Translations under genes and position numbers: made by a program | The notes under the pieces: model-generated | Databases searched by the model: none | What the model saw: only the letters and a program-made list of their open reading frames with translations | What the model was told of the DNA's origin: nothing | In this document: positions 15,831 to 64,000 of the stretch, in pieces | How the letters are laid out: every line of letters begins with the position of its first letter | How positions within the stretch are numbered: position 1 is the stretch's first letter | NCBI GenBank assembly: GCA_046563655.1 | Contig: CM102283.1 | Location: 7,874,001-7,938,000, forward strand | Direction of reading: 5' to 3' | Length of the DNA stretch: 64,000 nucleotides | Source: Yuukianura sp. NJ FZ-2021 | Taxonomy: Eukaryota

Positions 15831-16056
15831 TCAAGTCGTTTCTAGTGATCTGAAACATTTCTTCAAATTCCTTTTAGGTTCACCTCTGACCTCAATGAGT
15901 GGTCGTAGGGACATAGTCTACATATACCACAAAAAATACTCCCCTTATGATTCTGAACAAGTTTTATAAAAGTCATTTTTGAGGTTGTCAGGGGTGCCCA
16001 CTTCAGTTTCTGGACTTTGCAAACTTTCGAGTGCCAGATTTTCAAAAAATGCGACG

Positions 16057-18499: not shown

Positions 18500-19290
18500 A
18501 AACGCTTTCGTTTCTCAAATTCCCCAAAATTCTCCAGGCGGGACTGCAGTGGGAAGAAGTTGATTCAAAATAAAAAATGTGTAAAACAAAGAAAAAATGT
18601 CAAATGTCAAAATGGCTTCGGCTTTTAGTAAACGGCTTCGAAAATGGCGCCCAAAATTTAGGAAAATGGCGGCAAAATTTGAATTGTGATTGTGAAGTGG
18701 CAACATTGGAGGTGAGTGAGTGGGTTTGATTCATTTCACTTTCTATTTTGTGTGGAAGTGGATTGTGAATTACTCAACTTTGTCCTCGGATTGCTTCTTC
18801 TTCCCCCTTTTATTTTCATCATATCTTTTTAACGTTGGTATATTCGCTATTCCTGTGGGAATAATGGGTTAAATTGAAGGTTATCTTCTTCGTCATCATC
18901 GCATATTCAAGACTTGGTCATCTCAGCAGCTCCACTTCCCATTTTACTGTTAAAACTTCCGATGCTTTAATTAACATTGACAAAGTTATATCTATTTACG
19001 GGGCCGCTGTTGTCGTCAAAGTCAAAGTCAACAAGTCATCTGGAACAACGTAAATTTCTAAGCAACTGGACAACGAACAAGACGAGGGAACTGGACAGCA
19101 AGATATATTCGAGGGAGCTGCTGAAGAATCTTACTAAACAGGTCGATTACCATTTTGTCGAGACGAGTTAATCATTCTACATTTCGTAAGATCTTGTAGT
19201 ACGTCATAGAACAACTTACCTTTCTATATTTTAGTTAAAATTCTAAGTATTTACATGATTCAACACAACAGTTGAACTTAAAAAGTAGTA
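18500..19290. repeat. Duplicated intergenic segment, copy 2 (paralogous to about 15015-15830), upstream of intact hook
   Basis: Same shared blocks as copy 1. Confidence 0.9.
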
Positions 19291-19638
19291 TACTACTCTC
19301 CTCTAGTCAACTGGAACTGATGAATCCTTGTTATGTGCCTTGACTATTAGCTGACTCATACAATTTATCTTGATCTGTCCTTATCGTTATTTGTTTCCTC
19401 TGAGAGCTCATGTAATAGTAGTCGTACTATTTGCTATTTTTATCACCATTTTTGTTTCCAAGTTCTCACGAGAGGCTTTTCGAGATATTCCGAACCATTT
19501 GGTGCCAGTGGTTTCAGTTAGTTGAATATCATAAAGTACTAGGAAAGTTATTATTGAAACGCCTCCCAGTTTGAACTTTAGTGTCAGTTCCAGTGTGATT
19601 GAAGTGTACAAGGAAATAGTTTAAGTAATCATCTGAAA

Positions 19639-43300: not shown

Positions 43301-46300
43301 CGAACAGTTTGCGAGTGGAGTCTGCACATTATCAAAGCTTAACGTGTAATGTCAATGTCCAAATTTTAAAATCCGTCTTTTTTAAAATTGTGTTTAGAGG
43401 TTGTTCACTTTTTTAGAAAAGTAAACATGCACGCTGTGACACTTTTAGAACTTGAAGTGGCTGGTTTTGTGTCAGGAGTAAACAAGTAAACAGTTTGACT
43501 TTTGACAATGGTGTTTTTGTTACAATTGAAATATAATGGCTGGAGCAAATTAAAACCAAGTGAGAGTAATTGGTTAATAACGGCCTTTACTTTCATTTTT
43601 ATGGTGCAGGAGAACGTTAACGTTAAGAATGTAACAATTCCAGCGCCAGATTTGAATTGTGTTGTGCTGGATTTGAATTTTGTGGCGCTGGAATTTTGTT
43701 TTGAAGGGAGAAAAGCTGTTTTAAAGGGCTAGAATGGAAGCACAACATGCTGGAGCTGGATCATGAGAAAGTAGCAGCAGTGACTTCCGGTTGTGTTTTT
43801 GTGGGCGCGCGTGCCATTAAAGCAAAGCTGTACATCGTTCTTAAGCTGTCAAGCGATGTAAGAGTAACTGTTAAGCCACAGCCGGAGTCCATATGTTGTC
43901 CCTGACGCTTAAATTACCATTTTCCGCTTCTACGACTTTTGTATTTGAAGCTTCACTTCATGCTTTAACTAGGAAGTCCAGAAAATTTTAAGAAATTTAT
44001 GTTTTAACTTGAATTTCAAGGTTTTAAAGCAGTTTTCGACGACGTTTGGAAAATAAAGTTCATTCAAAGAGCAAAACCTGTGCTTTGGTTGCACTTTGTA
44101 AAAATTTGGTTTTGGCGAATTTTGATTTGTAAAAAAATAGTATGGTGGCACGTTTTGGTCAAGAAAAAAATTTTCTCAGAAACTGTTTTAAAACTTTTTT
44201 TTTAATGTAGAAAGTGAAACCACCGAAAATAATTCATTTTCTGAAAATTTTGAATCAGTGGGTGGTGCTAAGAGATTTGTAAGCTGTTAGAGAAACGTGG
44301 GCAAAAATTTTCGACATTTTTTTTTCTTTTTCGCACTACACAAATCATTTTCAAGCGTTTTTAGTCAAAATTTTACTTTATACGACTTTAGGATATTTGT
44401 GAAGTTCGGTTAAAAGTTAAATGTTAGCCTAACCTAACTGCGGAAGTGTTAATGGAAAGAGATTAGAAGTTACATTAGGGAAGCGATTAAAATCTTAAGG
44501 AACTTGTGAACTGTCACCCTGAATGCAATGCAAACAGTTTGAAAAATTTCCTTTTTTTGAAGATGCGTTTTCTAAATAAGGAGTGATGGTTTTGGTGGTA
44601 ATGGAGTAGCGACAGTAGTGTAAAAAAGGCTCTTTCATTTGAATTATTTCAATGCCACCAAAGGGAAAACCATTATGGTAATTCAAGACTATTCAACTTT
44701 CAGCTTCAACGTTCCTAATGGCATCATTATTTCTGTTTTTGTGAAAAAAGATTTTTTGTGGGATAATTCAATTTGTTCCTTAAAAAACCGTAACTGTACT
44801 ACTTTTCAAGATCTTGGTTTTTCAACAACGCATGGATTTCAAACAGCCTTTTTCTTAAATCCGGGAAAGGAAATGTCAGATCCAGTTTAGCTTGGAGCGA
44901 AAAGATCATGTTCTTTTTAGTTTCAACTTTGTTGTTTTGTTTTGAACAGACATGATACTGCTGCTAGGAACAAAATTTCAACTAATTTGGAACTTTGATC
45001 TTCGCATGAGTGAAGTTCAAGTTCTCTTCAGATTTTATCAAACTTGAAAACTTCGAACAAAAAGAAACTTAAAGAACAAAAGTTTTCACAAAATTTCAAT
45101 TTCTTCCAAACTTAATTGATTTTGTTAAACTTGGAGTTGAAAATGCACTGAAGCTTCACTTTTTAGTTGTAATTTTTCATTTTGATTTTTTGCTGTGTTT
45201 TTTCTGCTCGTTCAAAGACGTTCTTAGAACATGATTTTCTATTTTTGTTAACCATAAAAACATAACTGTTGCTGGAAAAATGAGTTTTTTAGTACTTTTG
45301 AATCGTAATCTTTTTGAAGAGTGAAGATGAAATGGAAAACAGATCCCTTGTTAAGGTTCTGGTAGTTGGAAGACATATTTTAGTAGAAGTGGGATTAAAA
45401 TTGAGGAATCTGGTACTGAAGATGACACTCTAGAATAGCCCATTCCCATACTTAACATTAGTTAGAAGATCATTCACTTTACCAATTTCAAGGTTGGTGA
45501 TGATGCTAATTCCTTCAAAAATATGCAGGATACACCCACTTCTGAACATTTTTACTGGCAACTCACCAACATCTTTGGTCCACCATTAGCAAAACATGCA
45601 AACATACAAAATTTTAAATATGCTATATTAATATTACCAAAAATGAAAAAAAAAAAACAATTGAAAATTTTAATTTGATCTTATCTTAATTTTTAATTTT
45701 TATCAATAATTGATAAACTTCAAACTTTCGTTGCAACTTTTAGTTTTGTATCTGAAAGTTTCAATTCTACTCTGAAAGTTTTCTGGTCTTGAACAGTGGA
45801 ATTGAACAGTTGTTTAAAAAGATTTTTGTCTCTGTTGCATCTTTTTAGAAAAAATGTTGAAGAGCATCTTGTACTTTGAAAAGTTTAAAGTTTAGTGACT
45901 CTCCCCTTCCGTCGTTCCGTCTGCCAAAGTTAACTTTATTCTGAGTGCGTTGCAGGTCCTAAATCCACCAATAGGAGTGGAGAAAGACTTATTTTTGTCG
46001 GTGGCGTCAGTCTGTCGGTTTGAGAAGCCTGTGAAGATCGTGGGTGATTTTTATTTTTATGTGAATGCAGAGTTGTATAAGACGTCGACAGAAGAGTTAA
46101 ATGTACGACTGCACAAGAAAAGTATAAAGTTGAAGATGTTTCTCATGGGAAAAGAAAAAACACGGAGGATGAGCAGTTTCAATTTGAAACTTTCAAATTG
46201 GATCCATTTCTGTTATTGCGAATTTCCGTTTTTTTTTGCAGCTCCACCTCCGTCAAAGGATTCCGAAATTCTGTTGAGAGTTTGAATTTCTTAGTTTTTT

Positions 46301-49300
46301 TTCGTTTGGATTCTGTCAAAGTAGGAAGTGTTTTCAATTTCAGCTGAAATAGGAAGTGTTTGTTGCATTTTTGGGTTTGCGTTAGAGTAAGGCGAGGTCT
46401 GTTGACAGTTTGATTGGGTGACATTGAGATATGTCCGGGTAGAGTTTACTGCGTAGTCAAGTTTCAATTTTTTTTGAAATTTCGAAACAAGTTTGGATCT
46501 GGACCAGGATATTTTAGGGTTGAAGTGTAAACGGGAGTGAAAGTTGGGTAGATTCCAGGAATTTTCGTGAAAATTTTCCTTGAAAAGTTTCCACAGCTTC
46601 CAGATCTCAAAACTTTCACTTTCAGGATCGCACTTTCTCCGTCTCTTCTGTTTTTGTGCGTTTGAACAAGGGTGAATGACCTGGAACAAGGCTGCTGCGT
46701 GTGCAGCTCGTTTCAAAGCATAGGTTAGGCTTAAGCTAAGCTAAACCTAAGCTTGAGAGGAACCTTTTCTGCTGTGATCGTATCGTACCCGGATAGACTT
46801 GTTTTGATCCACGGCGACTTCTGGGGAAAGTTGATACCGCGACGATTCTTCTGTTCAAGTTGGCTCATGGTCCTTGTTTTCTTTTATAAACAACAACTTT
46901 CTTTTTTGAAACACGCCAAATGCATTTTCGACTTTCTCTTTTCCTTTTCATGAACTTGCAGAAGATGTTCAGGTTGTTAGTGCGAATCGAAGTCTCCCCG
47001 GGGAAATTCTGGAGGGCATGCAGCGATGCAGCATGAAAGCAAGGCTAAGGGCTTAAAGTCATTCATTGATTTTCCTATTATGTGCGGATCGGCGGTGCCA
47101 CGGCCGCGGTGGAGTGTTTTAGAAATTTGAGCGCGTCTTGTTCGTGATGCACTGTCTAATAATACCTACAGCTATTTTTGGAAATAGCTTTTGTTCTTTT
47201 TCGAAAACGAGAGCCAAAAGGAGAGATGAAAAAGAAAATGAAAAGTGAAAACGTGTTATTACGAATAGCAATTGAATGACTCAAGAAAGGAATTTTACGA
47301 GACAGGTTTTATTACCTTGAGGTTTTTTTCAATAACGTAGAAAACGAGTCTGGAATTGTCGTTTGAACGAGCTAAAGAACATTAAGTTTTTCCAGTCCAG
47401 GAAATGATGGGGACCAATGTCAATGTCAGGCCTAGCACTATTTTAAGTTTAGTTTTTCAAAAATTTCTGTTACTAGATTCTGTGAAAATCTGAAGATTTT
47501 GGGCTAAAGCACGGAAAATTTCTTAATTTTTTGTTAGTTTTTGAAGGTCGGGCTGCTTTTTATAAGAAAATGTTTATGTTAGGTTAGTTTTAGTTGAGAA
47601 ACTTGAAAGTTAATGTTAGTTGATGTTGTTGTTGTTTTTTCCAGGAACAAGTCGAGAGTTGCTGGATGCTGAATTGGTAATTCTGGATGACCTGGCCATG
47701 TCCCCACCCCTCCCGACGTCACTCCCCCCATCAGGGGGTGGTGGTGGTGCTAAGGCTCAGAGCTTAACTAACCTAACCAGTGGACGTGCACTAAAGTTGT
47801 CCATAGCACCAGATCATACTTCAGATGGAACTGATCCAGAGGCAGAAGAGAGAGCCAAATCCCTCGAATTCTTGTTGGATGAAAAGCAGAAGAGCGCTGC
47901 AAGCGTAAGTTTCTGAAAATTAATAAACTTGAGCGTTTTGGAATTCCAAAAATGTTTCAAAAATTCCCCAAAGCATTTATAACAACTTTTATATAGACAA
48001 ACTGCCGCTTCGAGTGGATGTATTTTGTACATTTTGTTTGAACAGCGCGGTAAATTAGACGCCGAATCACGGAACTCTTTCAGCGATTAATTTATTTTTC
48101 CTTAATCTGCTCCAGCGATCTTAAGCAGTTTCGGTTTCATTGCACAATAAATCTTGGTAGTTTAAAGGGACTGAATGCTGAAGAATGTTAAAATTACGTG
48201 CAAAGTTCCATTTACAGCACCACATAAACTGTTTCTGTTTGGAGTTTACTTTTCATGACAGATTTAATATGTTCAAACTGCAACATTTTCTGAAGCTTTC
48301 GGCTTAAATGTGAAGGTTTCTGCATTCTGCAGCAGAAACGGTTTGGATTTTTGGGATATAAATTATCGACATGCTTAGATTTTTCCTTTTTTGGTTGCCA
48401 TGACGCCATTACAGTTTAGACCTGTTTGTATAAACTAAAAGTGCAAATGGAAAAATGGCAGTGATGACAGGTTGGAGCAGTTTTAAATCCGTGTGAATTT
48501 ATCTTATGTTGCATACCCAGTACTGCCAAATATATCCAGCACATTTTCCATCTTTGAGAAACGGCAAAGCTTTGGCTTAAGTTGGGACTAATGGAATTTG
48601 ACTTTGAGCTGCTTTTATCCGGCATCACTTTCGAACTTTTCCTCAAATTGGTGAAAATTTGACAAAATTTTGAAACTTGTAGCGATTTAGAAAGTTAACC
48701 GAGGTGTTAGGTTGTAAATAAAGCTTTCAGGAATTCATTGATGCTTTAGCTGAACTTTGGAATGAGTTTAACTTTAATGTTTGTTTTTTATGTTTGTTTT
48801 TACAGCCGCCTGAGAACAAATTGCAACAAGACAATCGACATTTATCAGAACATGAGCTCCGTGTGGAACGGTCACTGCAGAGGATCAACGTGCCGGAATG
48901 GTACCGACGACATAGTTACAGAAGCAAAAGTGCTGAAAGAGATCGGTCCGAACTGAAAAAAGACACGCCATTGGTCAGTTCCACTGGAACTACTGCACTC
49001 CAGCTACTCAAGAGAAACGACTATGGAAGCTCGGGCGGATTAGCTGGAGGTAAAATTTGAAAAATCGAACATATTTTTAATGTAATAGAATGTGGTGGGG
49101 AAAATTTTTTTTAGTTTTTTCTACATGCTTTTGGTGAATGATTATGGAAGAAAATTATGACTTTGGTTTCTGCAAAAATCTTTACTTCAAAATCTAACAT
49201 CATGTTTTCATCTAATCATTTTTTGTAAGAGCTAAAAAAATTGAAATATTTTTACTGTGTGTTTGGTTGCAGGTTGGGCAGGACTGTCGGCCTATCGAAC

Positions 49301-50884
49301 TCCGTCACTCTCCAGTCTTGGCAATGGTGGTCTGACGACTGGTAAGTTTTCAAAAAAAAAGTTTTGGAAATTTTGAATTTTAAAAGTGTCCAATTTCGTT
49401 AATCAGGCTAATTACTACTTGGACGTTCCAGTTTTTCAAAGTAATAGCTAACCTAGATGCAGTTTTTAATTTTTCTGTTATTTACACCTTCATAAACCCA
49501 GTTTTTGACGTGATGCTTTCCATATTTTTGTAACAAAAAATTTAGTTTTTCGTGTCCAAACTAAGCTAGCTTTTCTAGACAGATGAAACATAGCGTGACG
49601 ATGCTCTTTGTTAGTTTGGTTGCATTCCATCATGACTTTTTTTTACAAGTCTCCTCAATAACTATTAAGCCATGACGTGCAGATCTCATTTTTTTGGACC
49701 AATTGAACATTAGTGAGCATCCGGACCACAATGATGGATCATTCCGTGTCTTTGTCGAGTCATTTTGCAAGCTTATTTATCAGTAGGTGTTTGGGTTTGG
49801 TCAACATTCAGCAGTTCCATATTTGCTCATCTCTTAATTCAATTCTAACTTTAGTATAGTCTTCCAGTCGACTTTGTTTTGACGAGCTGTTTCCGTCTCT
49901 GGTTGAAAAAAAAGTATGTGAGAGACTAGCCAAAAAGTTCCTTGAGTTTTTTGAGTGACAGTTTCCTAATTAAAGTGAGTTTGAACCAATTTTGAAAATT
50001 GGACGGAGCGACGACGCGTCACGCCGGAAGTAAAAATGTTGAGTTGTGCGAAATTTTGAAATTTTGAATTTTTGTGATTTTAGGATCACTGAACCGATCC
50101 AACTTTGTTCGAGGACGACCGGCAACAATGAGTGCTACGAGGTCATCCAAGGAGTCACTTCTCAGTCCCAGTTCAACGGCGAGTCAAAGTCCATCGGCCT
50201 TTGAACGTTCCTCTTTCACGTATGAAAACATCCAGAAATCATAAAAAGTAGCGATTTTGAAATTTTGCAATGAATTTTTTGGATTTTTGCAGATACGGTA
50301 TGCCTCTGACGATGACACGCTTTGGAAAAGGCCGACTGAGCTCTACGTCCGGTACAAGTCCAGCCAGCGGTTCGTCTCCGTCAACGCCAGGCCAAACTTC
50401 ATCTTTGAGTGCCTATGTGAAGCAACCTTATTTGGGCTGGAGGTCACAAGAAAAGCTCCAAACTGTTGGAACCGCCGCGGCGACAACGTCGTCAAGCGGC
50501 CTAAGGCTGTCAACTTATCGTCCTCCAGCGGAACGCCTAGCTGCTGACATGCTAACGAGACAAAAGAAGACTCCGACTAGACCCACCGGAAGTGACCGAC
50601 CACCGTTGCCGAAATGGCCGTCCAGAACTGGATCTGACAAGGCCAAGACAATGTCCCTGCCACCCCAACCAGTGTCAGAGGAGATCCTGTTGTCACATGA
50701 CTTTCCACGTACAGCGTCTCCTTCAATACACGACTCTATCAAGGAAGTGACGGATGCCATAAGTGAATTTGTAACCAATGGACACGAGGGGCCACCCAAA
50801 CCGCAACCGAGAACAAAGAATGTCAAAAAACAGGCGCTTTGGTTTGAAAGTTCGTTTGTAGGAAAGAAGACGCAGACGCAGTGA
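34357..50884 (+). CDS. Large, mostly low-complexity uncharacterised protein, about 1969 aa. Exons 34357-34620, 37282-37342, 37440-41723, 47645-47904, 48806-49049, 49273-49341, 50084-50219, 50293-50884
   Basis: A 1450-codon ORF plus seven further exons with phase-compatible GT-AG junctions (5910 nt, in frame). Higher-complexity islands: YLETILEE, VHFSPVVSEISWRE, RAKSLEFLLD, PPENKLQ..SEHELRVERSLQRINVPEWY, QPYLGWRSQEKL, IHDSIKEVTDAI, WFESSFVG. Confidence 0.8.
35513..35824 (-). CDS. Small putative secreted protein (103 aa) nested antisense in intron 1 of the large gene
   Basis: MKTSLRLLIFLFSVEIMISA resembles a signal peptide and is followed by two copies of AFPFP(E/D)TTPW(P/S)TEKS. A candidate 5'UTR intron (donor near 35951, acceptor near 35857) and a TATA box lie upstream. 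Confidence 0.7.
   Translation of the reverse strand: MKTSLRLLIFLFSVEIMISAFPFPETTPWPTEKSSSAFPFPDTTPWSTEKSVERKKTTTPSTELQVLKLILDNDKKILKFLKTVEDPNSKSIKVTDQGQQKLN
35976..36013 (-). promoter_or_regulatory. Candidate TATA box plus Inr-like element for the nested secreted-peptide gene
   Basis: TATAAAAA at 36013-36006 and ACAGTT about 30 nt downstream on the minus strand. Confidence 0.5.
39436..39652 (+). repeat. Coding tandem repeat (33-36 bp, 11-12 aa, about 6 copies) inside the giant exon
   Basis: EVQKYNQDIEFP RVQQHNQHIEVT EVRQYNQHIEFP EVQQSNQHIEVS EAPYKQYIEHP EVQYKQYIEHS. Confidence 0.85.
41763..42165. mobile_element. hAT-type MITE (outer)
   Basis: TIR CAGGGATGTCAAAAATAT / ATATTTTTGACAACCCTG; 8-bp TSD GTTATGAT / GTTGTGAT (one mismatch). 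Confidence 0.8.
41804..42003. mobile_element. hAT-type MITE nested inside the previous MITE
   Basis: TIR CAGACCTGCCAAAAATAT / ATATTTTTGGCCGGTCTG; exact 8-bp TSD GTAATATT at 41796-41803 and 42004-42011. Confidence 0.8.
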
Positions 50885-51610
50885 GAATTTAGTGAGTAAT
50901 GGAGCATACCACACACGTCAGAATCCAGTTTTGACTTGCTCTCCTTGCTTCTAGTTAGTAGATAATCGTTGTTTCTATTTTTTAATCAAGCTAGTTAGTT
51001 TAATTACAAAAATGGAAGCAACGGGTAAGTATAATTGTAAGCTAATGCTAAACTAAAAATCGCAGACGCAAGGCATTTAAAATTAATCTTCCTCTATACA
51101 CTAAACTAACAATCAGTTTACTAACAAATTAAGATTAATTGTTATTAAATTTTCATTTTAGTTTATTCTGTATAATACACTTTATAACTTTCTTCTTTAA
51201 CCACAAAGTTTTATTTTAAATCTATATTATTTAAATAATGCCATCGCCATCCTATCTTGGAGGATTTAAAACAGTAATTTTTAGAATTTAAATTCTTTTG
51301 TTGCAAAAAATGTTAGCAAAGTTATCAAGTTCTGCCAAAAATAAGAGATTGTTTTTGACCTTATTGCTTTTGGGTCACTTGTTACAATAAATTGTTTAAA
51401 AACGCCTAATTTTGGATTTCGCGTCGAAATAATTAGTGTCCATGACAGCAGTGTACCTGATACACACTTCAAGTTTGCATAACTCACCGTTTGTTTCAGA
51501 GTCGTCGTCAATAATAAATTGAGTTGCGCGAAGAGGTGCGTTGTTCGTTTTTTTTTCTGAGCAGCCACCACTCAGTTTGTGAAGTGTTTCGTTGGCCATT
51601 TTGAAAAAAG

Positions 51611-54600
51611 ATGGAATATCGCCTGCTTTTGGGAATTTCGTATCTTCTGATAACGCTGACGCTACTGGAAGGCCAACTTGACCCATACACATCGTTACCA
51701 AATGAACAACGAGTAAAGCCGTGTTACAATACCACAGGCAGTTTATTATGTAATTCTCCTGATGCCTGTTGTAATGACGTCTGCTGTGTCAATTATGAAT
51801 CTGAGGGTGAGCATTCAGCCAAGGCTATATGTATTCAAGATGGCTGTCTCTGCCTCATTGATCCATTCGTCAAGTTTTTTGGAGTGGCATGTCAACGTAT
51901 AGACTGGTGCTACCTTAGATACAACAGTTCAAAACCGTCGTCTGATGAATACAACTGTGGTAACCATGGAACTTGTGTCAAGGAATTTAGTCACCAATTT
52001 CAAGATCCAGTCACCAAGGAAGCAGACTTTGCGCTTATGTGTAACTGTGAGCATGGCTGGTACGATAATCCGGACACACCCTCATCACCATCATGGGTTA
52101 AAAATATCAGTCTAAAGTGTCGAGTTGAAAATCCATGTGAAACGAGTCCAGACTACTGCAACATACGGGAATGTGGAACTTCATGTCAATGTATTAACTC
52201 AACTGAGCTCAATGAGCCTCCAAGAGACGGAGGTTTTAAGATTGGACCAGAATGGCGGTACAAGCATAACTGTTTCTGCGGAAGTGGATTTTACCAAGAT
52301 AAGAATGTGTCGGACTACTACGGAGCCCAAACGTGTTTCAAGGAAAAGTGCCCGAAGGGTCCTGGTGTGCTGAATTGCTCAGAATATGGCGGGAATGAGC
52401 CAAAGTACTTTTGCAAAACTGGATACACTGGAACGAATTGCACGCTGGCTGATTGGTGTGTGATCAATTCAACGTTTGAAGCAAATTGTCATAAAGCTGG
52501 AGATACTGCGGCAATATGTCCAGGACCGATCCGTGACGAAAAGGATTTACACTGTATATGTTCCACTGGCTACAGTGGAAAGAGTTGTGAGAAACGGAAC
52601 TACTGCGTAACGGACTACTCCAAGACGAAAGCGCATCGTGACTACTGCGGAAGTTTTGGAACGTGTGACCCTGAAAAGTCCGATCAAGCTCAACAACGTT
52701 GTAAATGTGACAAAGGGTATAATGTTTTTTTTAAACTGTTATTGTTGTTTTTTTTTGAAAATTCTTATTTTTTTCAAAGTTGTCTAAAAGTTACTAGACG
52801 GAACCCGTGATGTTTACACATCACGATGACATGAAGGAAGGATGATTTTGAACATTTTGTCAAAAATCCGCTAGCTTTTTCGTTTGACCCGAGGTATGAC
52901 CTAGTGCTTAAAGGTAATTTCGTGATGCGTAAACATCACGGGTTCCGTCTAAGTTGAATCGAAAATATATTGCAAAGGCTGGGGGGGCAAGCCCCCCCAG
53001 ACCCCCCCCCCTTCTTTTGGTTTCTGAGTTGAGATGGAATTTTTGAAAGTCTGTGCTTGGAGGAGTAATGTAAAAGGGACACCCCAGGATCGTTCCACTC
53101 TTCCAAGCAGAGAGAGTTTTTTGCACATATAGTTTGCATTAGCATGGGATTTCACGTTGTGACGGAGGGACACTCGTCAATTAGAGTATGATTTTTTTTT
53201 TAGATATGTCGGGCCACAGTGCGTTAGAGACGGATGTGACCAACCTGGACTGTGTGAACATTCCCTCAACCGAACATGTCAACCGAATCTACTGCAAGCC
53301 AATGAATACAGCTGCGGAAACTCTACAAATAGCAACCCGCAATGCGAACGAGGATGGTAATCTGCCCGAAAGATGCTATAATTTCTATAATTCTATATAA
53401 GTTCTATAACTTGCTATAACTTGCTATAATTTCTCTTAATTTAGTATAATTTCTAAGATTTTTATAATTTCTATAATTCAGTATAATTTCTTTAGTTATA
53501 ATTTATATAATCTATAGAACGCTTCTATAATTCACTATAATTTCTAAAACTTTTTATAATCTGTAGGAAGCTTCTGTAATTCATTATAATTTCTATAATT
53601 TGTATAATTTTTAAAAAGTTTCTATAATCTATATAATTTAGCTTTATAATTTAGAAACTTCTAATAATGTTTAAAATAGCATTTTTAAATTGAGTTCATT
53701 TGTACAGGGATGGCGCGAAATGTAACATCGAAGACATTTGTCAAACGAAGGAAGCCTGCAACAGTGCCTTTGGAAACTGCGATGGCTGCTGCGTCGTTGA
53801 CAAAACTGTCGTCAGTCAGAACAAAAGCAACTCCAAGTTGCAGTTTTACAAAACGTCCTGCAATTGTAGTGCAACTTATATTGGCAACAACTGCGAGCAT
53901 CCCCACAAATGTCTTCTAGCAGTACAACAGGGAATGCCAGTCGGAAACTGTTCCGGAAATGGAGTCTGTACTTATACAACCACAACGCCAGCATCATGTA
54001 TCTGCAACTCTGGTTACTTTGGAACTTACTGTGACCGAGAAGACATTTGCATGGCCACCAGTGCCTTGGATCCATGCAATTCAGCTGCCGATCCAGGAAA
54101 TCGGTGTGACCGCCTCCGGACATGGGATCGGCAGAACATTATTTGCAACTGCGCGCCTGGATTTGACTTTGGACCAGGTCCAGGCAAGCAGTGTGTCCGA
54201 AATCCTTGCTTTGGTGTCACTTGTCAACATAACGGAATTCCCTTGAAAGCAACTCCAACACTATGCAACTGCTCTTGTCCATTTGAGTATCATGGAACTC
54301 GATGTGAATTTGAAAACAAATGTGCTGTTAATCCATGTAATGGATTCAATTGCACAAAAGTTAGAAACGGATTTACATGTGACTGTCCACCGATTCTGTA
54401 CACGCCTACATGTGAAGTCAACGACACATGCGTACATGATCCATTTATTTGCGATGTTCCTGGATACTCCACCGCTGTCATCAATCCATGTATCAGTTCA
54501 CGCAAACCTGGAGAATACAATTGTAATTGTACCATTGGATGGACAGTAGACAGAAGTATTCCAGTCGCCAATTGTTTTAAGCATGATCTCTGCAAAGATC

Positions 54601-57600
54601 CTGCCACGGCGTGCAGCAAAGTCGGAACTCTGCGCTGTTCGTTTCAAGATGGAGATACTAAGCCTACTTGTGTTTGTAAAGAAAATGAATACTACTTTGG
54701 CGATTCTTGTGAACAGCAAGATCCTTGTACAAACCTTGTCAAGCGGCCGTATTGTTCTCAAACTGGAACTGCAGTTTGTCTTCCACATACCAACACTAGA
54801 CCTATATGTCGCTGTTTACCTGGCTTCCATGGTCTGCAATGTCAATATCAAGATTTTTGTGCCAAAAGTCCGTGTCTCAACGGTGGAAGTTGTCACCGTG
54901 ACAAAAACGATTATAGATGTTCCTGTCCAGCTCTGTACGAAAACACTGACAAAAATTGTGCATTTGAAAATGGTTGTGTTCGAGATAAACCATGCAAGAA
55001 TGGGTAATTATAACAAAAATTACATTTTCAAAAAATTAGTTTTATGATTTCAATTTTATGTTTTAGATTTCCTTGCGTTCCAAACCCAAATCCTGCAGGA
55101 GTTAATGACTGGAATTGTACTTGCGGTGAGGAATTCAAGAACAAGTCGGATTGCAGTGAACGTGACCCCTGCGTCTTCGGAAATTTGTGTCTAAATGGAA
55201 AATGTATACGAGTAAATGACACGTCCATTAGATGCGACTGCGCAGGAACTCCGTTCATCGGTGACCTTTGTCACATTGCCCATGCAACTATTCGTCTAGA
55301 TGCTTATCCACTTACAGCAAATGTCGGTGAACAACGTGTGTTTATCCTAATTGTTCAAAAACGTGGAACCGACCCAACATTCAAAATTGATTTCGGCGAT
55401 TCTTTCAATTTTGAAATTTCGGATCGGAATCTTCTTCCACTCAATTTCCAAACGATCCAACAGCAGCGTGGAATCCTGGGCCAAGAAGGAATTACAGCTT
55501 TAGAACCGCTTGTCAATTCCGGTTTTGAATTTTACCCGTTCACGCACATTTACAATTCCAAAGCCAATTTTCAAGTGAACACGACAGTACTCAATGGTGG
55601 GTTGCTTTCGGAGCAACGTACCAACTATGTCCTGGCGGACACTTTCTATTGTCTTCCGGTTGTGCTGCTGCAGAATTGTGGTCGAAGGCGATCGGGCAGA
55701 CAGGATCCGAAAGTGCCGACGTATGAACGGAAGTCACGATTTGTCATTGAATCCAGTCTGTACTACAATGATTGTCAACCAACTTCGGACATTAAGTTCA
55801 AGTGGAACTTGTTTCGACTTACGGACATTGCACCCTATCCAAGAATCGGTAACTAGCTAATGCTAACCAACACTTAACTTGAATTATAATTTAAGATTAT
55901 TTTGTATTAATTATTTTATTTATTTTAATTACAGATAATGAATGGGAAATCGCTGGAGTCACTGCACATGAAAACGGAGATCAGAAGCACATTATTTTCC
56001 TTCCGTACAATTTGCTGGAAGGTGAATACTGGATTCAACTTTTCGTCTACTATGAATTTGAAAACGATACGGAACACAAAAAACCAGTCGGAAATTTAGA
56101 TTGGGTAAATTTTTCAAAACTTTCAATTTTGGAAAAAGAAGCTTTTTTCAGAATTTGTGTTCAAATTTTTTTTTTCATTTCCAGTGCTACTTTAACTTGA
56201 TGAATAGTCCGCCTCTTGCTCGGATTGACGGTGGGAATGCCAGAACTGTTCATCTGCATGCTACTGGAAATAATCTACTCGTTTTGAATGCTTCGAGTTC
56301 AATTGATCAAAATGATCCGACGGACCCAAAGTTAAAGTTTTCCTGGAGCTACACCTTGGACGACCTTCTAACTCCAACTTACTCTTGTGCAAGTATTTCA
56401 AAAAGTTCTTGCTCAGCATCCTGGATTGAAATTAACGTTGCAGAACTGGACGCCTCCAAGCGGTAAACTCTTACTTTACTAAAAAAAATTTTCAAAATGC
56501 CAACTTCAAAATTTTGATCTAATTTTCGTTTTTGAACCAGCTACACTTTCCATGTCGATGTTGACAGTGTTCGACCGAATGAGTTGTCTACGTCTTCTAC
56601 AGCTACGCAACAAGTGAACATAGTCAACGAGGGACTTGAAATAATTGTCAAGTAAATTCACACAAAAGAATTTCACATTTTTTTCAAAAACGGTTTTTGA
56701 TTTTTTATGAATTTCAGATGTGTTGAAAACTGTGTCAAATTCAATCCCGGTGACACTGTGCATATTGAATGCGGTTGTGCAGATTGTGGTGACGATGATT
56801 CTTACGTTGTTTATAATCACCGGTGGGATCCTCAGTTTGGAAATGTGACCAAAGTTGGTCAGAAAACGTACCACTTGATCTTGTATCCAGATCCTCTGGG
56901 TAAAAGTTCACATGAATTTGAATGCAACGGAGTCACTGCCGATGGAGGTCGCAAACATGAAGGCAGAAGTGCTTTGCCAATTCTCATCAACAAGGCACCA
57001 ATTCCCGGCAATTGTTCGCTCGACCAACCACTACGCGTTGCTTTTCTTCAAGAATTTGCCAACAATGTTTTCGTGACATGTCAAGGGTTCACTGATCCTG
57101 ACCCTGCTAGTCTTCCCTTGAGCTACCAAATCAATGCAATCATCACAGACAATGGTGTGGGGGATGCCTTATTGCCAAACGGAGTTCTCCTTTTGCATGA
57201 CGTTTTTGAGCGACTTCCGCTGACTTACCTTCCCATGGGACAAATTGGCACAAATTATGCAGTTAAACTGCAAATCGACGTTTCTGATGCATTTGGACTT
57301 CCTGCCGATGTAAGCTTAAAATTAGCTCAAAGATTTACTTTAAAAATTTTTTTTTTAATTTCTGAAACGAAATTTTTTGATTTTTTTTTTCAGACTCCAC
57401 AAACCCTGAACATCCAAGTATTTTCGCCAGGACTAACCTCCAGTGCAGACGCTTTGAATAAAACGCAGGACGAATTTCGCAAAACGCTGGATAAAGTTTT
57501 TGGCTTTCAAAGTGATTCTGGAACAAATTTGACCGGACTTCTAGCTGCTGGTGACAATCAACGAGCACTTCAGTTGATCCTAAGCTTTCTGTACTCCATA

Positions 57601-60600
57601 AGAACCTACGGTCCACCGCAGAGATCAGAACTGTTTGATATCATGGCGAAAGTCACTGCCGAAGAGCGTCTGAACATGTCAGATCGAATCATGGCTGCAA
57701 TTCGATCAATTCCGCTCTACAGTCACCTAATTGTGAAACAAGTTATGCAAAGTCTCTATCTTTTGTCTCACTTCGCACAGTATCTCACAGATGACACGCT
57801 GATGAGTTGCGCAGAACAACTCATCCAAACAGCCAAGTATTTTCGAAATTACGTGCTACGGAACGAAGAAGTGATTTTTACAAACGACATTGCACAACTC
57901 GCAAGGTACTGCCAAGTTTCGAAAAAAAATAAGAATGGAATTTTTTGAAAAACTGTTTTAAATTTTTCAGGGCTGGGAAATACGCTGCGGAGAACATTAT
58001 GATAGAAACGGAGAAGCGGGGCCAAGCGATTTTGGAAAAGGATTTAGCGACTGCGCAGAGGAACCAAGAAATTGAACTGGAACATCTTTATCAAAAAGAT
58101 CGTGATTACTTTTTAGAAGTGGATGAACTGAGAACTGCAGAAGGAAATGTACGAAATGATCAACCAGAAACGACGACACTCGGAGAAGAAGAAATTGAAA
58201 CTGTGAAGCGAGTAAGAATTTAAAAACGTTTTTACTTTCAAAATTCCCACAATTTTTTTTAAATGTTGATTTCAGATGTCTTCTATTTGTGAACGAGCGT
58301 TTGTGTCAATGATTCATTTGCTGGAAGCCATTGCCTCACGTCAAGTGCTTTCAACGACAAGTCAAATTGTGTTGCCCTCAAGCATCGTGTCAAAGGTCAC
58401 AAGTTCCGTTGACATTTTCCCGGTTGAAGACTTGAAGAACAAAACTATGTCTGGAATTGTATTCCCCCAAGAAATTGTTATGCTCATTCAAAAACAAAAT
58501 ACGAAAGCTGTTCAACTTCATGTACGAAATTCCAAAAAAAAAAACTTTCCCCCTTGTTTTGATTTTTTTGAAATTCGAATTTTTGTTTTTTTTTACAGTA
58601 CGGTGTCTCAGAAATTAATCCATATTTTGGAGATTTTGGAGTCAAGCCAGACACAAAAATTTTTCGAGTTGAGATGAAAGTCGACGGTTACAAAACTGAC
58701 GGATCTGATCAATGGATTCGAATTTCCAAAACTGAAGAACCAATCAGAATCAAGATTCCATTTAAAAGCACAAGAAATATCCTCAATGAAACAATTGCTG
58801 AAGAAACACAACGAGTGAGAGACGAGGACTTTGCATCGGTGGAGCTTGTCAGTTTTGATGAAATTTCCGATTTGAATCCAAATATCAAAATGTTTCATCT
58901 AAGTCTCATCCATGGATCAACATTTTACATGGTTGTAACTACTAAATCGCATCCACAAAGCGGCTATACGACCATCGAGTATCAGGCAGCACTGACACAA
59001 GACTATCGTCCCACTGCTGAAGATTTTTGCCGCCAAAATACAAATTATACTAGACGATTTTCTTCAGGAGAAACCGTTGAATTCAAAATTCATCCTGATG
59101 GAACCGAAAGTGGTAACGCGAGTCAGCCTATTAGGTATTGGAATAAAATTTTTTCTAAAAAATCAGATTTTTTTTTCAAAATTTTAACTTTTTCGCTTTT
59201 TTTTGCAGTGGTGATGGAAATTACTTGGATTACTACATTGGAATTTGGCCATTTGATGAAAATGGAACCCTACCACTAGGAACTCCGATTCAGTTTTCAG
59301 TAAATTTTGTGCAATTGAGTTGCTTGACACGAAACGAAGACGAAAACAAATGGGTTGGCAAAGGATGTGAAGTAATCAGCACTGGAACAAAAAAATTGAA
59401 AATTTCTAAGCGTGTGACGAAATTTTTAAAATTTTATTTTTTTTAGGTTTCGGACTTTGTCGACGGAGACTACTTGGAGTGCAAATGTCATCACTTGAGT
59501 ATCTTCGCCGGTTCAGTTGTAGTTCCACCAAACAGAATTGATCTTGTGGACACCGTGGAAATGTTTTTAACAATTCCGGACAACTACATTGTTCTCATTG
59601 CAGTGGGAACAGTGTTAGGCATTTGGCTAATTGGGCACTTGATTTGTTACTGGAAAGACAGAGATGACCGACGTCACCACTCGGGAATCACCATCATGTG
59701 TGAAATTGGTGAAAATTTTAGTCACACGTTTTACTTGGTACGAGTTGTCACTGGAAGTAGAATTTCAGCTGGAACTACTGCAAATGTATCGATTCAAATT
59801 TATGGCCAAAATGGACGGAGCAAAATTTACGTCATCAAGGACTCAACTCTTTCTGTTTTAAATCGCGGCGGAAACGACTCATTTCTGATTTCGTCTCCGA
59901 AGGATTTGGGGCAACTGGAGAAAATCCGGGTTTGGCATGATAATAAAGGAGCACGTCCTGGATGGTATGCAATCTGTTTCTCAAGTAATTTCAAAAATTT
60001 TTTAAATTTTGTTCAATTTCATAAGGTACCTCCGGAAAATTATTGTCCGGGAAGTAAAAACTGGAAAACGCTGGTACTTTTTTGCTGGAACTTGGTTGTC
60101 CATGACATACGAAAAGGATCCGAACATTATTCGTGAATTTACGGCAGCGACTCCAGCGGAACTGAATTCTTGGAGACGACGCTTCAATGATCGTCTGGTT
60201 GAAGAATTTAACAACTCTCACTTATGGTTCAGCCTGTTTTTTCGACTGCCAAGTTCAAATTTTACACGCTGCCAGCGATGGGTTTGTTCTTTTGGAATTC
60301 TCATGTCACACATGCTGTTCAATATCATGTGGGAAGGAATTCCAACGGCAGATTACAGTAAACCAAACAGCAAATCTTCAAAATAACAATTTAGAAGCAT
60401 TTTTTTTTAATTTTAAATTTTTATTACAGGCACGCTTTTCGAAGTTGGTGATTTTTCAATCAACTTGCGTCAAGTTCTCATTGGTCTCCAAATTGCCATT
60501 GTGGCTTCTCCTGTCGGCATGATTCTTATTGTCCTGTTTCGGCGAATCCGAAAACACCGAATTCCTACACTCGTTGTATGGCAAGACCGAGTTGCCAAGA

Positions 60601-63600
60601 AACAAAACATTTTGCCGAACGTTCGAGAAGAACATATTTTTCTACCAAACAAAGATGGAGAATTCAAAGAGACTGTGATTCCCGCTTCCACGGTTGGAAA
60701 CATTGGTGAAGGTGACGTCGGGCCAAGAGCTTTTTCTGTTCCATCGACTGACATGGTAGCACTGGAATCCTGGATAAGCAAAGACACACGAGGGCACGGA
60801 CTCCGCCCACCAACTCAACGAGAACCGGATGCATTTGTACACAAAGTGGAAGATAAAGAGGCCGAAGCAGGACACTCTTCAGCATCTCATATGCTCCGGA
60901 TTGGTCGTCGAGCAATTGCCGAAGTCGTGAGAAGAACGGATCCTACGGCGTTCATATACTCTGGTCATGGTGACTTTGAAACCCAATTTGAAGAGGAGAT
61001 TCGGCGCAGAGCTGATGAAAATCATCCTTGGACGAAACTGAAAAAACGGGATATTCAAGCACTTGATGAAGATGTTAGAGCGCATATTCCAAAAATGCAG
61101 CCAGTTCAAGTTGTAAAGAAAGACGATCGAAAGGACGACATGATTTATCATGGAATTTCGCTGGATTTGTGTCTCATGTCACCGGTTTACAAGAAAAGAG
61201 GTTATTTTCCATGGTGGTTCCTCTATGTGTCATGGACTGTCGCGATTGCAACAATCTTCACTTGTGCATTTTTCACAATTTTGTTTGGACTGAGCATTGG
61301 GCGTCTGCGCAGTTGGCACTGGTTGACAGAAGTGTCATTTTCGTTTGTCCAAACGGTCATCATCACTCAACCTGTCCGGATTCTCGTCATGGCTTCAATT
61401 TTCACTGTCATTGATCGTGTAACAACTTTTACACAATTTTGTTCAAAAAATTTCTTTGTACGCATGGGCTTTAATAGTTGAACTTTTTTGTAATAGAAAA
61501 TACATGCGTCGGAGGAAGATCGTTTTCAAGTTGTGGTGGATGATGGAAAGGAGCAATTGGCAACAGACAGAAAATTGAAATATTCGCGCTTCCAGCCGCA
61601 GCGATTGTATCCACCACTCAGTGGTGCTACGCTGCTTCAACTTAGACTCAAAGCACGTCGACGCAATGAACTCAAACGGGGATTGGTAGCAATGCTGTTT
61701 CATTTTTTGGCAATGGCTTTTCTGGCTTCAATCATCTCAACCTCTTCAACTGCTGTAAGTTTTGCATTTTGAACTTATAAGGTATGAATTTTGCAAAAAT
61801 ATGTTTTGTTTTTAAAGAAATTTGCGGTGACTTCTCATGTCAGAAATATGCTTCAGCTCAACGAGGGCGAATCCTTCGATCGCATTAAAACCGCAGCAGA
61901 GTAAGCCTTGTACAATGAAATAAAGTTTTTTGAAAACAAAAAAACTGGAAGTTTACCTATTCTAACTTTTTTTCTTCAAAAATTTCAGGTTTTACAAATA
62001 CATGAACTACTTTGCTAAAACCGTAAACCCATTGCAAGATTACAATGGAATTCCAGTAGCTCCAGTGAAAGACGCTCGCTACGAATCCACAATGATGGCA
62101 GACAACGAAACAATGATTTTGGGCATTCCGCGGATCCGCCAAGTTCGAATCATGTCGAGTAAGTTTGGCGTTTACCTTCAAAAAAAATTTTTACTGTTCA
62201 AAATCTAATTTACTACAATACTAAATGAGAAGTTACAGGTGAGATGTAATTCCAGAATTGCATACTTACTATATGATGTATTACTCTCGATATTTTTTTT
62301 TAAAGTCACGGTTTGGCTAAAACTCTCTAAAGTGCAACTTCCTCACTCATGATACTCATGATAAGTAGACCTGCTAAAAATGTTTTTTTTAAATACTAAA
62401 TATTTTTATATTTAAAAAAAATATTTCGCGATTTAAAAAAATGTAAATATTTTTTTAAATTTTCAGCGTTTTTCTAACAAAATGCAAATATTTTTTAAAT
62501 ATTTCGGCTTTTCATGATAATTTTGCCGAAATTTCGACTTTTTTGTCTACTCTCGGTGAACAACCAATGTGTTTGTCTGATTTTTCGACAACAAAATCGT
62601 GAAAAGAACGTTTACGGAGTTTTTCGGTAGTGTCAATTTAGTTAACTAAAAATTTGTCACATGCAACACTGGAAACAACTAAACTTTGAGTACAAGTACA
62701 CGAAAAATCAGATGGGCACCTAAATGAAAGTGCTGCAGTACTTTAGATACGTACGATTACGTACATACTTTCGTATGTACATTTTTACAAGAATTTTAAA
62801 CCATACTAATGGAATCAAGAGCACAATACCGTTAGCGTAGCATTGTTCTTACACGGTAATATTAAGCGACAAGACAGTGCTGACGTGGTAAATCTGGTGA
62901 TTGGGGTTGTTGCCCAGTCCTTTTATACTTACGTAAAGGTTTTTCTCTCTAAATCGGTCTGATTTTAGTACGAAATTCATAAATATTAACGGTTTTAGTA
63001 AATATTTTTAAAAATATTTCCCCGTTTTTAGTAAATTTTTAAATAAATATTTTGGGTGCTGATAGTAAATATTTTTAGCAGGTCTAATGATAAGCTAATT
63101 TTTTTTCAAAATATTGTTTTTTAAAAGACCATCACATCCACATCTAACTTTCTAACGTAATACTTTTGAAAAAAATCATCGTTAGGCTAAAAATTAAGAG
63201 CGGTGTTGGGCGAAGCTCCAGCACCCATGCTTAGTAGGCTTGTTTTTACTAGAACTTTTTTTTTACTTTCCCAGCTGAATGTGACATTCATGAGCGAATC
63301 AAGCAGTTTTATTTGCCACCATCAACGACAGTTACTGCGCAACAAGAAAAACTCAAAGACAAAATCAACTGTACTCGTGGTTATGTCAGTTTGAACGAAG
63401 ACGTTGGAACTTACAATCCATTTTGGAAAGAAGTGGTTGGAAATTCTCGCAGTTGGATAAGCTCCAACGACGTCTGGACTTGGCGAACTCCAAACGAAAC
63501 GCAGTCGATCATGATTTCTGGAAAATTGACCAAGTATGATGCTGGTGGATACGTCGCAGAACTAGGCATGTTTCAACGCAAAACAACTTCAGTTCTGAAT

Positions 63601-64000
63601 TACATTCGACAAACGAAGTGGATTGACTCACGTACTCGAGCAGTTTTTGTTGAAATGAGCGTTATCGTACCGAATTCCAACATTTTTGCCGACATTCTAC
63701 TGATGTTGGAACAGTCTCCTGCAGGAGCCTTCATTCCGACATCAATTGTAACTTTTTTGAAATTTACACTTTTGTGACTCAAAATTTTGAAATATGTTTT
63801 TTCCTTTAGGTTTTACCGCTTCAAATTACATTTCCAGCTACAAAAGGTGAAAGTTGGCGAACATGGGTGACAATTTCATATGTCGGAATTACACTCTATG
63901 CCTTCGGGCTCATTATCAGTCTTGGACGTGGAATTATCTATCACTGGGTACACTACCGAATGGGATTCGTCGGAAGTTTGTGGCTTTGGCTTGACTTTGC
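51611..64000 (+). CDS. Polycystin-1 family (PKD1-like/REJ-type) receptor-channel subunit with an N-terminal EGF-like array; 3' end outside the window. Exons 51611-52716, 53204-53356, 53708-55003, 55067-55848, 55935-56104, 56185-56462, 56541-56650, 56718-57309, 57394-57905, 57971-58211, 58276-58521, 58599-59134, 59209-59371, 59447-59964, 60026-60357, 60430-61418, 61497-61754, 61818-61900, 61989-62158, 63275-63747, 63810->64000
   Basis: Signal peptide; many EGF-like repeats (e.g. CAKSPCLNGGSC..YRCSCP); PKD-like domain (FKIDFGD..FTHIY); REJ-like motifs (LNASSSIDQND, KCVENC, PIPGNCS, FTDPD..PLSY); GPS (C..W..KGC..CKCHHLSIFAG); TM1; PLAT (VVTGSRISAGTTANV..DLGQLEKIRVWHDNKG..PGWYL); HLWFSLF..SNFTRCQR; TOP domain (LGIPRIRQVR, YDAGGYVAELG, WIDSRTRAVFVE). 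Confidence 0.93.
52795..52951. repeat. Inverted repeat of about 33 bp (MITE-like) in intron 1 of the polycystin gene
   Basis: TAGACGGAACCCGTGATGTTTACACATCACGA ... TCGTGATGCGTAAACATCACGGGTTCCGTCTA. Confidence 0.7.
53376..53670. repeat. Degenerate 9-10-bp minisatellite (CTATAATTT-like) filling intron 2 of the polycystin gene
   Basis: Repeated CTATAATTT / CTATAACTTG / GTATAATTT motifs. Confidence 0.85.
62366..63086. mobile_element. hAT-type non-autonomous element in a polycystin intron
   Basis: TIR TAGACCTGCTAAAAAT / ATTTTTAGCAGGTCTA; exact 8-bp TSD ATGATAAG (62358-62365, 63087-63094). TIR related to the inner MITE at 41804. Confidence 0.85.

Follow-up and report, generated by a model that had tools for sequence, protein, structure and literature searches.

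A polycystin-1-family gene with a long array of EGF-like units in the springtail Yuukianura

A stretch of 64,000 nucleotides (nt) from Yuukianura sp. NJ FZ-2021 (GenBank assembly GCA_046563655.1, contig CM102283.1, positions 7,874,001 to 7,938,000 of the forward strand; hereafter the window) contains one intact gene of the polycystin-1 (PC1) family whose product carries a long N-terminal array of EGF-like units, confirming what an earlier note had observed from the letters alone. The gene probably codes for the receptor subunit of a PC1/PKD2 channel in a cilium or flagellum, with an EGF array that would have arisen by expansion. Three-frame translation together with a listing of GT and AG sites gave a model of 21 exons and 20 introns, all of the latter GT-AG and 61-1,116 nt in size. 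The model begins with an ATG at 51611 and, completed with the neighbouring genome stretch, stops 1,288 nt beyond the window end, at G000:C1:7939288, which yields a product of 3,495 amino acids (aa) in a single open frame. The order along the protein is signal peptide, 18 EGF-like units, one PKD/Ig-like domain, REJ, GPS, PLAT and an 11-helix polycystin region; open frame and domain order thus agree with the single gene that the earlier note had proposed for EGF, PKD-like, REJ, GPS, PLAT and channel sequence. The start given there was correct, whereas its span, 51611..55280, takes in the first quarter of the gene only. Pfam was searched exon by exon with 20 of the 21 exons, exon 18 (83 nt) being omitted. 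The exons, with their transmembrane (TM) helices, are as follows.

51611..52716, plus strand: exon 1, which encodes a signal peptide (aa 1-23) followed by units 1-6 of the EGF-like array; the Atlas look-alikes are EGF clusters, at low recognition
53204..53356, plus strand: exon 2, the rest of unit 6 followed by irregular unit 7; both flanking introns are common to the orthologue L003
53708..55003, plus strand: exon 3, units 8-16 and the start of unit 17; Pfam EGF at an expectation value (E) of 3e-9
55067..55848, plus strand: exon 4, units 17-18, PKD/Ig-like domain and start of REJ
55935-56104, 56185-56462, 56541-56651 and 56718-57309, plus strand: exons 5-8, REJ module; Pfam REJ in exons 6 and 8
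57394..59371, plus strand: exons 9-13, presumed GAIN region, by its place between REJ and GPS, and first half of the GPS
59447..59964, plus strand: exon 14, GPS, TM1 and most of PLAT; His-Leu-Ser at 59492-59500
60026..61754, plus strand: exons 15-17, end of PLAT, TM2-TM6 (by hydropathy) and a large cytoplasmic loop
61818-61900, 61989-62158 and 63275-63747, plus strand: exons 18-20, extracellular polycystin (TOP) domain; Pfam Polycystin_dom E 1.4e-26
63810..64000 and on to G000:C1:7939288, plus strand: exon 21, S2-S6 channel region, pore loop and C-terminal tail

Exon 4 runs from units 17 and 18 through the PKD-like domain into REJ in one frame. This bears out the earlier view of the exon at 55067-55848 as the link between EGF and PKD-like sequence, and argues against the alternative that the model has fused two genes, one with the EGF exons and one with the polycystin exons. 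The same alternative is contradicted by L003, the orthologue from a distant species that was the one related locus out of 48 pattern matches in a metagenome scan, and by fragment P0155, in both of which a single open frame leads from about 11 EGFs to the start of REJ. Two upstream introns are kept in position and phase in L003, and models from the springtail Orchesella unite signal peptide, EGFs and channel, which also speaks against two genes. On these comparisons a two-gene origin of the model appears nearly excluded.

The EGF array covers residues 31-920 (window 51701-55271) and comprises 114 Cys residues. These fall into 18 units of 35-76 aa each, which is the lower bound of the 18-20 repeats counted previously. 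EGF-like domains have six Cys, paired 1-3, 2-4 and 5-6. Regular six-Cys spacing is seen in 12 of the 18 units. The other six depart from it, with 10 Cys in unit 1, eight in each of units 3 and 8 and four in unit 4; unit 7 is without C-x-C and unit 11 contains C-x-C-x-C. The array-bearing exons measure 1,106, 153, 1,296 and 782 nt, as expected from the description of many irregular repeats packed into a few very large exons, and their introns interrupt units, not unit boundaries. Pfam EGF matches were best for units 9, 12, 16 and 18; exon 1 as a whole gave no Pfam match, and one piece of it matched weakly only (best E 0.0026). Searched against the PDB, exon 3 returned 19 sequence matches, all of them EGF-bearing (Delta-like 1, Notch, factor IX, EDIL3; best E 7e-11). 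The units are mutually divergent, with a median within-protein identity of 0.33, and contain 20 N-glycosylation sequons. In repeat number the array can be called Notch-like, as the earlier note had it. The likeness does not extend to the calcium-binding EGF consensus, for which two motifs gave no match in any of four arrays (window, L003, P0155 and the Orchesella protein P0064) and three matches each in a coral protein used as control. An O-glucose site is likewise absent from the array in comparison with Notch, and the 20 exons scanned gave no LNR, NOD or ankyrin match in Pfam.

The orthologue L003 has its exons in matching order, without a stop, and shares 19 of the 20 window introns; it has no counterpart to the intron at aa 851, an additional intron interrupts its first exon, and a single exon of it encodes EGF8-18 and the start of REJ. 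Identity between the two proteins is 41% in units 1-7, then 47% and 56% in later units, followed by 63% in REJ, 82% in GPS, 86% in PLAT and 77% in S2-S6. Array Cys residues are kept at 111 of 114 positions, with 38% identity at non-Cys positions, and four-fold sites in the array are near saturation (78 of 117 differ). As matching single units by identity proved noisy (about 0.3) and found the positional partner for only 11 of 18, Cys counts and a global alignment were used instead. Judged by sequence, the irregular units are not products of decay, because Cys numbers agree between window and L003 in all 18 units, odd ones included. Upstream of the gene, L003 sequence found no match in the extended window and the upstream neighbours differ; the divergently read neighbour in L003 (L003:1-2300, minus strand) resembles POP1 of RNase P/MRP by eye. 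Fragment P0155 carries about 11 EGF units running into the PKD-like/REJ segment, where it is 58% identical to window exon 4.

Behind the array, a putative PKD/Ig-like domain with a helical insertion lies at about 55272-55646. It remained under the Pfam cut-off, with E 0.077 in the window and 0.0047 in L003. A structural model of exon 4, built from a three-sequence alignment and of low confidence (predicted local distance difference test score, pLDDT, 41), forms a beta-sandwich for this domain. The top Foldseek match of this poor model was the PKD domain of SorCS2 (E 5.3e-3); fold searches with it returned none at E 0.001 or better and none at Z 8 or more, the best Z being 6.7 to assorted Ig/FnIII folds, and all matches of exon 4 to the Atlas were under 0.8. 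REJ was recognised above the Pfam cut-off in exon 6 (E 5.5e-8) and exon 8 (E 1.2e-9), and a genome search gave it as the sole REJ match found in the Yuukianura genome (E 5.7e-18). The region of exons 9-13, 62% identical to L003, had no Pfam match and is presumed to be GAIN from its position. The GPS motif C-x-C-x-H-L-S-x-F is intact at aa 2074-2082, with His-Leu|Ser at aa 2078-2080, before TM1; an intron splits it, and the half motif in exon 14 scored below the Pfam cut-off (E 0.015). The canonical PKD1/PC1 ectodomain includes LRR. WSC, C-type lectin, LRR and a run of PKD repeats had no match in the N-terminal exons of the window gene, unlike in the canonical subfamily, which bears WSC, C-type lectin and many PKD repeats (PMC1934368).

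In the channel half, PLAT follows TM1 (Pfam E 4.7e-14), and both Polycystin_dom (E 1.4e-26) and PKD_channel (E 1.6e-21) exceed their cut-offs. PC1 proteins have 11 membrane helices, the last six of them TRP-like. Ten of the 11 membrane segments have a hydropathy of at least 1.77; TM2 is weak (Kyte-Doolittle 1.13). All 17 PDB matches of the channel region are PKD2, PKD2L1 or PKD1L3, and the pore loop aligns without gaps with PKD2 and PKD2L1. The S6 core of the window PC1 is without a basic residue; the pore of human PC1 is reportedly blocked by R4100, R4107 and H4111 (PMC12183636). At aa 3382-3420 in the C-terminal tail, where PC1 proteins have a coiled coil, a crude, uncontrolled score points to heptads.

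PC1 and PKD2 form a textbook pair, and a partner of the latter type is present in the genome in one intact copy. Genome searches found two polycystin-domain loci and one GPS-PLAT match; the second polycystin locus is an intact PKD2 of 13 exons and 803 aa with an LGD filter.

G000:C7:5616.9-5620.0 kb (L004), minus strand: PKD2 gene, 13 exons

Among the best candidates scored, we thus found one predicted PC1 and one PKD2. The PKD2 gene lies just downstream of a gene resembling cytochrome b5 reductase. Other PKD_channel matches in the genome were rejected as polycystins: they belong to a voltage-gated calcium channel and to an exchanger like SLC9C1. The exchanger gene (G000:C2:7354-7359 kb, L005 and L007, minus strand) joins a Na+/H+ exchanger to ion-transport and cyclic-nucleotide-binding domains, and from this layout we take it to be like the sperm-type SLC9C1.

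An exhaustive homologue search gave 1,880 proteins in all, of which the best 150 were examined. Ninety-three were dropped as PLAT-only or mainly PLAT matches, mostly multi-PLAT proteins, and 57 that cover GPS-TM1-PLAT were kept; 14 of these have at least 1,000 residues before the GPS, which makes the survey of other animals a thin one. Word-index searches spanned 302-2,000, 456-2,000 and 2,169-6,902 aa (1 of 522, 2 of 934 and 4 of 874 candidates). By a strict motif, the 14 N-terminally long relatives comprise one long array (P0064), five proteins with 1-2 EGFs and eight with none, the last including a scorpion protein with about two EGFs by eye. A long array is therefore as unusual for PC1 as the earlier note held, since one of these 14 exceeds two strict EGF motifs, and its claim of lineage specificity agrees with the sampled relatives, where the long form was seen in the springtail clade alone.

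Two Orchesella dallaii proteins have the long form: CAL8110243.1 (P0165), with 5,885 aa, about 70 EGF units and the full channel, and CAL8110245.1 (P0064), with 3,944 aa and about 44 units, which ends before the channel region. Both are automatic models from one contig and carry the UniRef name 'Neurogenic locus Notch protein'. They are 94% identical over GPS-PLAT and may be tandem paralogues or an assembly duplicate. Array sizes in the springtail clade are accordingly 18, 18, at least 11 (the fragment), about 44 and about 70. In two quick, unrooted IQ-TREE runs with support from the Shimodaira-Hasegawa-like approximate likelihood ratio test (SH-aLRT), the window protein, L003, Orchesella and Allacma fusca came together at 100 in both trees, from which the genome is probably a springtail's; insects formed a group at 97, and a split at 95 separated hexapods from all others. 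The Allacma model is without its N-terminus, so that the array is not covered. Three of the five short-EGF relatives are from Periplaneta, Laodelphax and Homalodisca, and the other two fall within the insect clade. In the leafhopper Macrosteles quadrilineatus, eight PC1-like models on one contig form one 90% cluster (P0090), which suggests a local PC1 expansion.

From these relatives the array looks like a springtail expansion of an older EGF-REJ design, not a Notch fusion. One or two EGFs in the arthropod ancestor would have been expanded in tandem in springtails, followed by freezing in one springtail lineage and continued turnover in another. We prefer expansion because insect relatives have 1-2 EGFs at the matching position. 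With a profile of the segment after the last springtail EGF (PKD-like/REJ start), the three best non-springtail matches were 1-2-EGF proteins, at the matching position and weakly (E 0.002-0.009 among 164 proteins). The competing possibility that the springtail ancestor acquired its array by exon shuffling from a gene of the Notch, Crumbs or fibropellin type would account for the similarity of exon 3 to Notch, Delta and factor IX EGFs, and a separate-branch coral PC1 with calcium-binding EGFs of its own makes EGF gain look repeatable. We nevertheless hold shuffling to be unlikely on the sequences compared: springtail arrays are without the calcium-binding consensus, units 9-14 find no match in the genome beyond their own locus (one match, three candidates scored), EGFs stand at the same position in insect relatives and introns lie within units rather than between them. 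Orchesella arrays, moreover, bear the mark of recent internal duplication, with within-protein identity up to 0.91 and a median of 0.59 against 0.33 in the window. The earlier term 'domain-shuffled' is thus the less economical one, as insect PC1s (1-2 EGFs), SpREJ1 (one) and coral PC1 (four) are already EGF-bearing.

Ciliary genes under RFX control have an X-box not more than a few hundred nt from the start, and the promoter of the gene was scored for such sites against a consensus.

51436..51449, no strand: X-box-like (RFX) palindrome at -175 relative to the ATG, 2 mismatches

X-box-like sites lie at -175 in the window PC1 (2 mismatches), -174 in L003 (0) and -165 in PKD2 (1), the two PC1 sites being at like distance despite different upstream neighbours. 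Of random 500-nt pieces, 8.5% came within 1 mismatch and 59% within 2. Mismatches in ciliary control promoters were 1 for B9D1, 0 for B9D2 and 2 each for IFT20, BBS5 and MKS1 (the MKS1 start being uncertain); in sperm-gene controls they were 0 for CatSper delta/epsilon and 3 for SLC9C1. A pattern fitted post hoc on the three sites matched once in the window (0.16 expected), a result that is not independent, and also matched B9D2. The promoter motifs mildly support a ciliary or flagellar programme. As a divider between sperm and neuron the X-box failed, CatSper delta/epsilon having a perfect site and SLC9C1 none. The genome has two strong matches to the RFX DNA-binding domain, C2:7409308 (E 4e-32) and C2:5361026 (E 4e-31), which are probably RFX genes of the ciliogenic type. 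Most of the 43 RFX-domain matches come from a dispersed family of long open reading frames, in about 40 places besides G000:C11:343771-347655 (L018:2771-6655). In the copy examined, an RFX domain (E 5.6e-11) stands ahead of a reverse transcriptase (E 4e-18), and the family looks like a non-long-terminal-repeat retrotransposon carrying an RFX domain.

By analogy with the family, the receptor subunit proposed here would be cut at the GPS with its N-terminal half staying attached, and its 11-helix half would join PKD2 at a ratio of 1:3 to form a cation channel of the cilium or flagellum. An EGF unit is 2.5-3 nm long, on which basis the 18 units would make a long, calcium-independent, glycosylated arm of roughly 50 nm. 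Its distal, disulfide-elaborated units may bind an extracellular ligand or matrix, and binding or pull could be passed to the channel. Several findings weigh against this account. EGF folds in units 1-7 are putative, drawn from Cys pattern and weak matches, and BLAST finds only weak homology to the insect and scorpion proteins upstream of REJ. The genome searches score best candidates only, and a divergent paralogue could escape them. The window X-box, at 2 mismatches, is at the level of 59% of random pieces and notable only by its position relative to the perfect site of L003, and only two of the five ciliary controls (B9D1, B9D2) have 0-1 mismatch. One-to-one conservation of 18 units over a saturated distance is unlike the rapid change of PKDREJ (PMC5553355). 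Finally, the Gly-Asp of the filter is replaced in the window PC1 and L003, which leaves their share in conduction uncertain. This last point would suit a molecule mainly for adhesion or matrix, with a structural, shed EGF-REJ half and a channel half that conducts little or nothing, as would the 20 sequons of the array and the shed coral REJ protein proposed as a matrix component (PMC4890752). We think such a role improbable, as S2-S6 is among the best-conserved parts (77% identity), the pore loop is gap-free against PKD2 and the Orchesella protein retains the filter Gly.

For the PC1/PKD2 receptor that we prefer, the 'sensory or gamete receptor' of the earlier note fits the evidence, and the choice of cell type is close. 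We slightly favour the sperm flagellum, at about an even chance, ahead of sensory cilia and, as a small remainder, both or another site. The precedent of fly Amo and PRY, of REJ and of s-Themis, together with the variation in array length, is what tips us towards sperm: in cilia PC1 pairs with TRPP2, and Amo of the fly is located at the sperm tip (PMC7802972), PRY is tied to sperm storage (PMC7824794), a further paper counts as sperm support alongside these two (PMC3098850), and s-Themis of Ciona is a PC1 of sperm (PMC7018956). Alternatively, the protein could serve mechanosensation or chemosensation in ciliated sensory neurons, its EGF arm tethered to dendritic sheath or cuticle matrix; this reading would have the same channel mechanism and differ in cell type. 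We consider it a serious contender, if a somewhat less probable one, because Platynereis PKD1-1 and PKD2-1 mutants are without startle response (PMC6294549), LOV-1 and PKD-2 work in nematode male sensory cilia (10.1101/2021.02.03.429678) and conservation is strong unit by unit; the X-box-like sites in common with PKD2, B9D1 and B9D2 point the same way. Against it stand the same type of site in the sperm gene CatSper delta/epsilon, the link to sperm of Amo and PRY, the closest hexapod polycystins that have been studied, and the approximately fourfold change of array length within springtails. More tentatively, and with the odds against it, the array might be an antenna of tunable length on the sperm flagellum that reads a ligand of the female tract or egg coat after spermatophore uptake and gates PC1/PKD2. 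If so, this PC1 would correspond in hexapods to REJ, s-Themis and PKDREJ, and would do so in a CatSper-keeping animal, its 18 to about 70 calcium-independent units being frozen in one lineage and expanding as higher-order repeats in Orchesella.

Elsewhere in and around the window, an upstream gene with a 1,457-codon low-complexity exon (37388-50884, plus strand) ends about 730 nt before the PC1 start and gave no Pfam match in the three pieces scanned. A tandem array with a unit of about 52 nt directly follows the PC1 stop, and just beyond the window end there are three tandem SEC14/CRAL-TRIO-like genes by eye (L002:3300-8700). Positions 15301-17335 and 18769-21523 are tandem duplicates of each other, at 80-92% DNA identity, and include two HOOK coiled-coil exons. 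At 26907-28192 lies a tandem array with a unit of about 178 nt and 95-99% identity, possibly, with its inverted flanking matches (26328-26874 / 28264-28886), a transposon remnant. ABC-2-type transporter exons are found at 12739-14425 (plus strand) and an HR1-repeat gene at 2047-4816 (minus strand), which presumably resembles protein kinase N.

PC1 arrays of 18-70 EGF units, confined to the springtail clade in our limited sample, are apparently undescribed. We found no description of a springtail or long-EGF PC1, in a literature search that most subscription papers lay outside, and no paper on the Orchesella dallaii PC1 models. Short EGF runs before REJ are already known from SpREJ1 and from insect and coral database models; with these, and with PC1 N-termini known to gain and swap modules, the surprise is limited. 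The ligands of PC1 ectodomains and the gating of the channel are an open question in the field, for which a conserved membrane half with approximately fourfold variation in repeat number in one group offers a natural test of arm length against tip units, and one PC1 with one PKD2 in a compact genome a clean pair. The Notch label that UniRef gives to the Orchesella proteins needs correction, as these are polycystins.

Among known systems, these Orchesella models are closest to the window protein: they belong to the same clade and share signal peptide, non-calcium-binding EGF array, PKD-like/REJ segment, GPS and PLAT. They differ in having about 70 and 44 young, homogenised higher-order repeats in place of 18 old, divergent units, two PC1 genes on one contig instead of one, and the filter Gly. 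The insect proteins of Periplaneta (XP_069681274.1), Laodelphax (RZF43539.1) and Homalodisca (KAG8269298.1) and the scorpion protein of Centruroides (XP_023221750.1) have the same order of EGF, Ig-like segment, REJ, GPS and PLAT; the insect PC1s differ by only 1-2 EGFs and a clade of their own (97), several models being partial, and the scorpion protein by about two EGFs seen by eye (Pfam E 0.27-0.6). In the coral Stylophora pistillata, PFX27651.1 (annotated PKD1-like 2) is a full 11-helix PC1 that also has an EGF run upstream of REJ, but with four EGFs with calcium-binding motifs and an F5/8 type C domain, and it groups with a crinoid WSC-PKD protein (95), apart from springtails.

REJ, GPS, PLAT and channel are shared with the gamete-surface PC1s SpREJ1/3/4 of sea urchins, mammalian PKDREJ and Ciona s-Themis-B (PMC1934368, PMC7018956), whose distal part is a C-type lectin, SUEL or hypervariable region instead of a long EGF array; sea-urchin SpREJ1 has one EGF (PMC1934368) and is single-pass, unlike the 11-helix window protein. 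The PKD1L3/PKD2L1 heterotetramer (7D7E) resembles the window protein in the conventional length of its pore helix - filter - pore helix, unlike human PKD1 (PMC8357825), and differs in its ectodomain and in the aligned filter position, where the window protein is without Lys or Asp. Notch receptors share the long tandem N-terminal EGF array, whereas the window protein is without the calcium-binding consensus, the O-glucose site and an LNR or ankyrin match, and is multipass where Notch has one helix. By its predicted REJ, GPS, PLAT and channel it is a member of the PC1 family, not a Notch.

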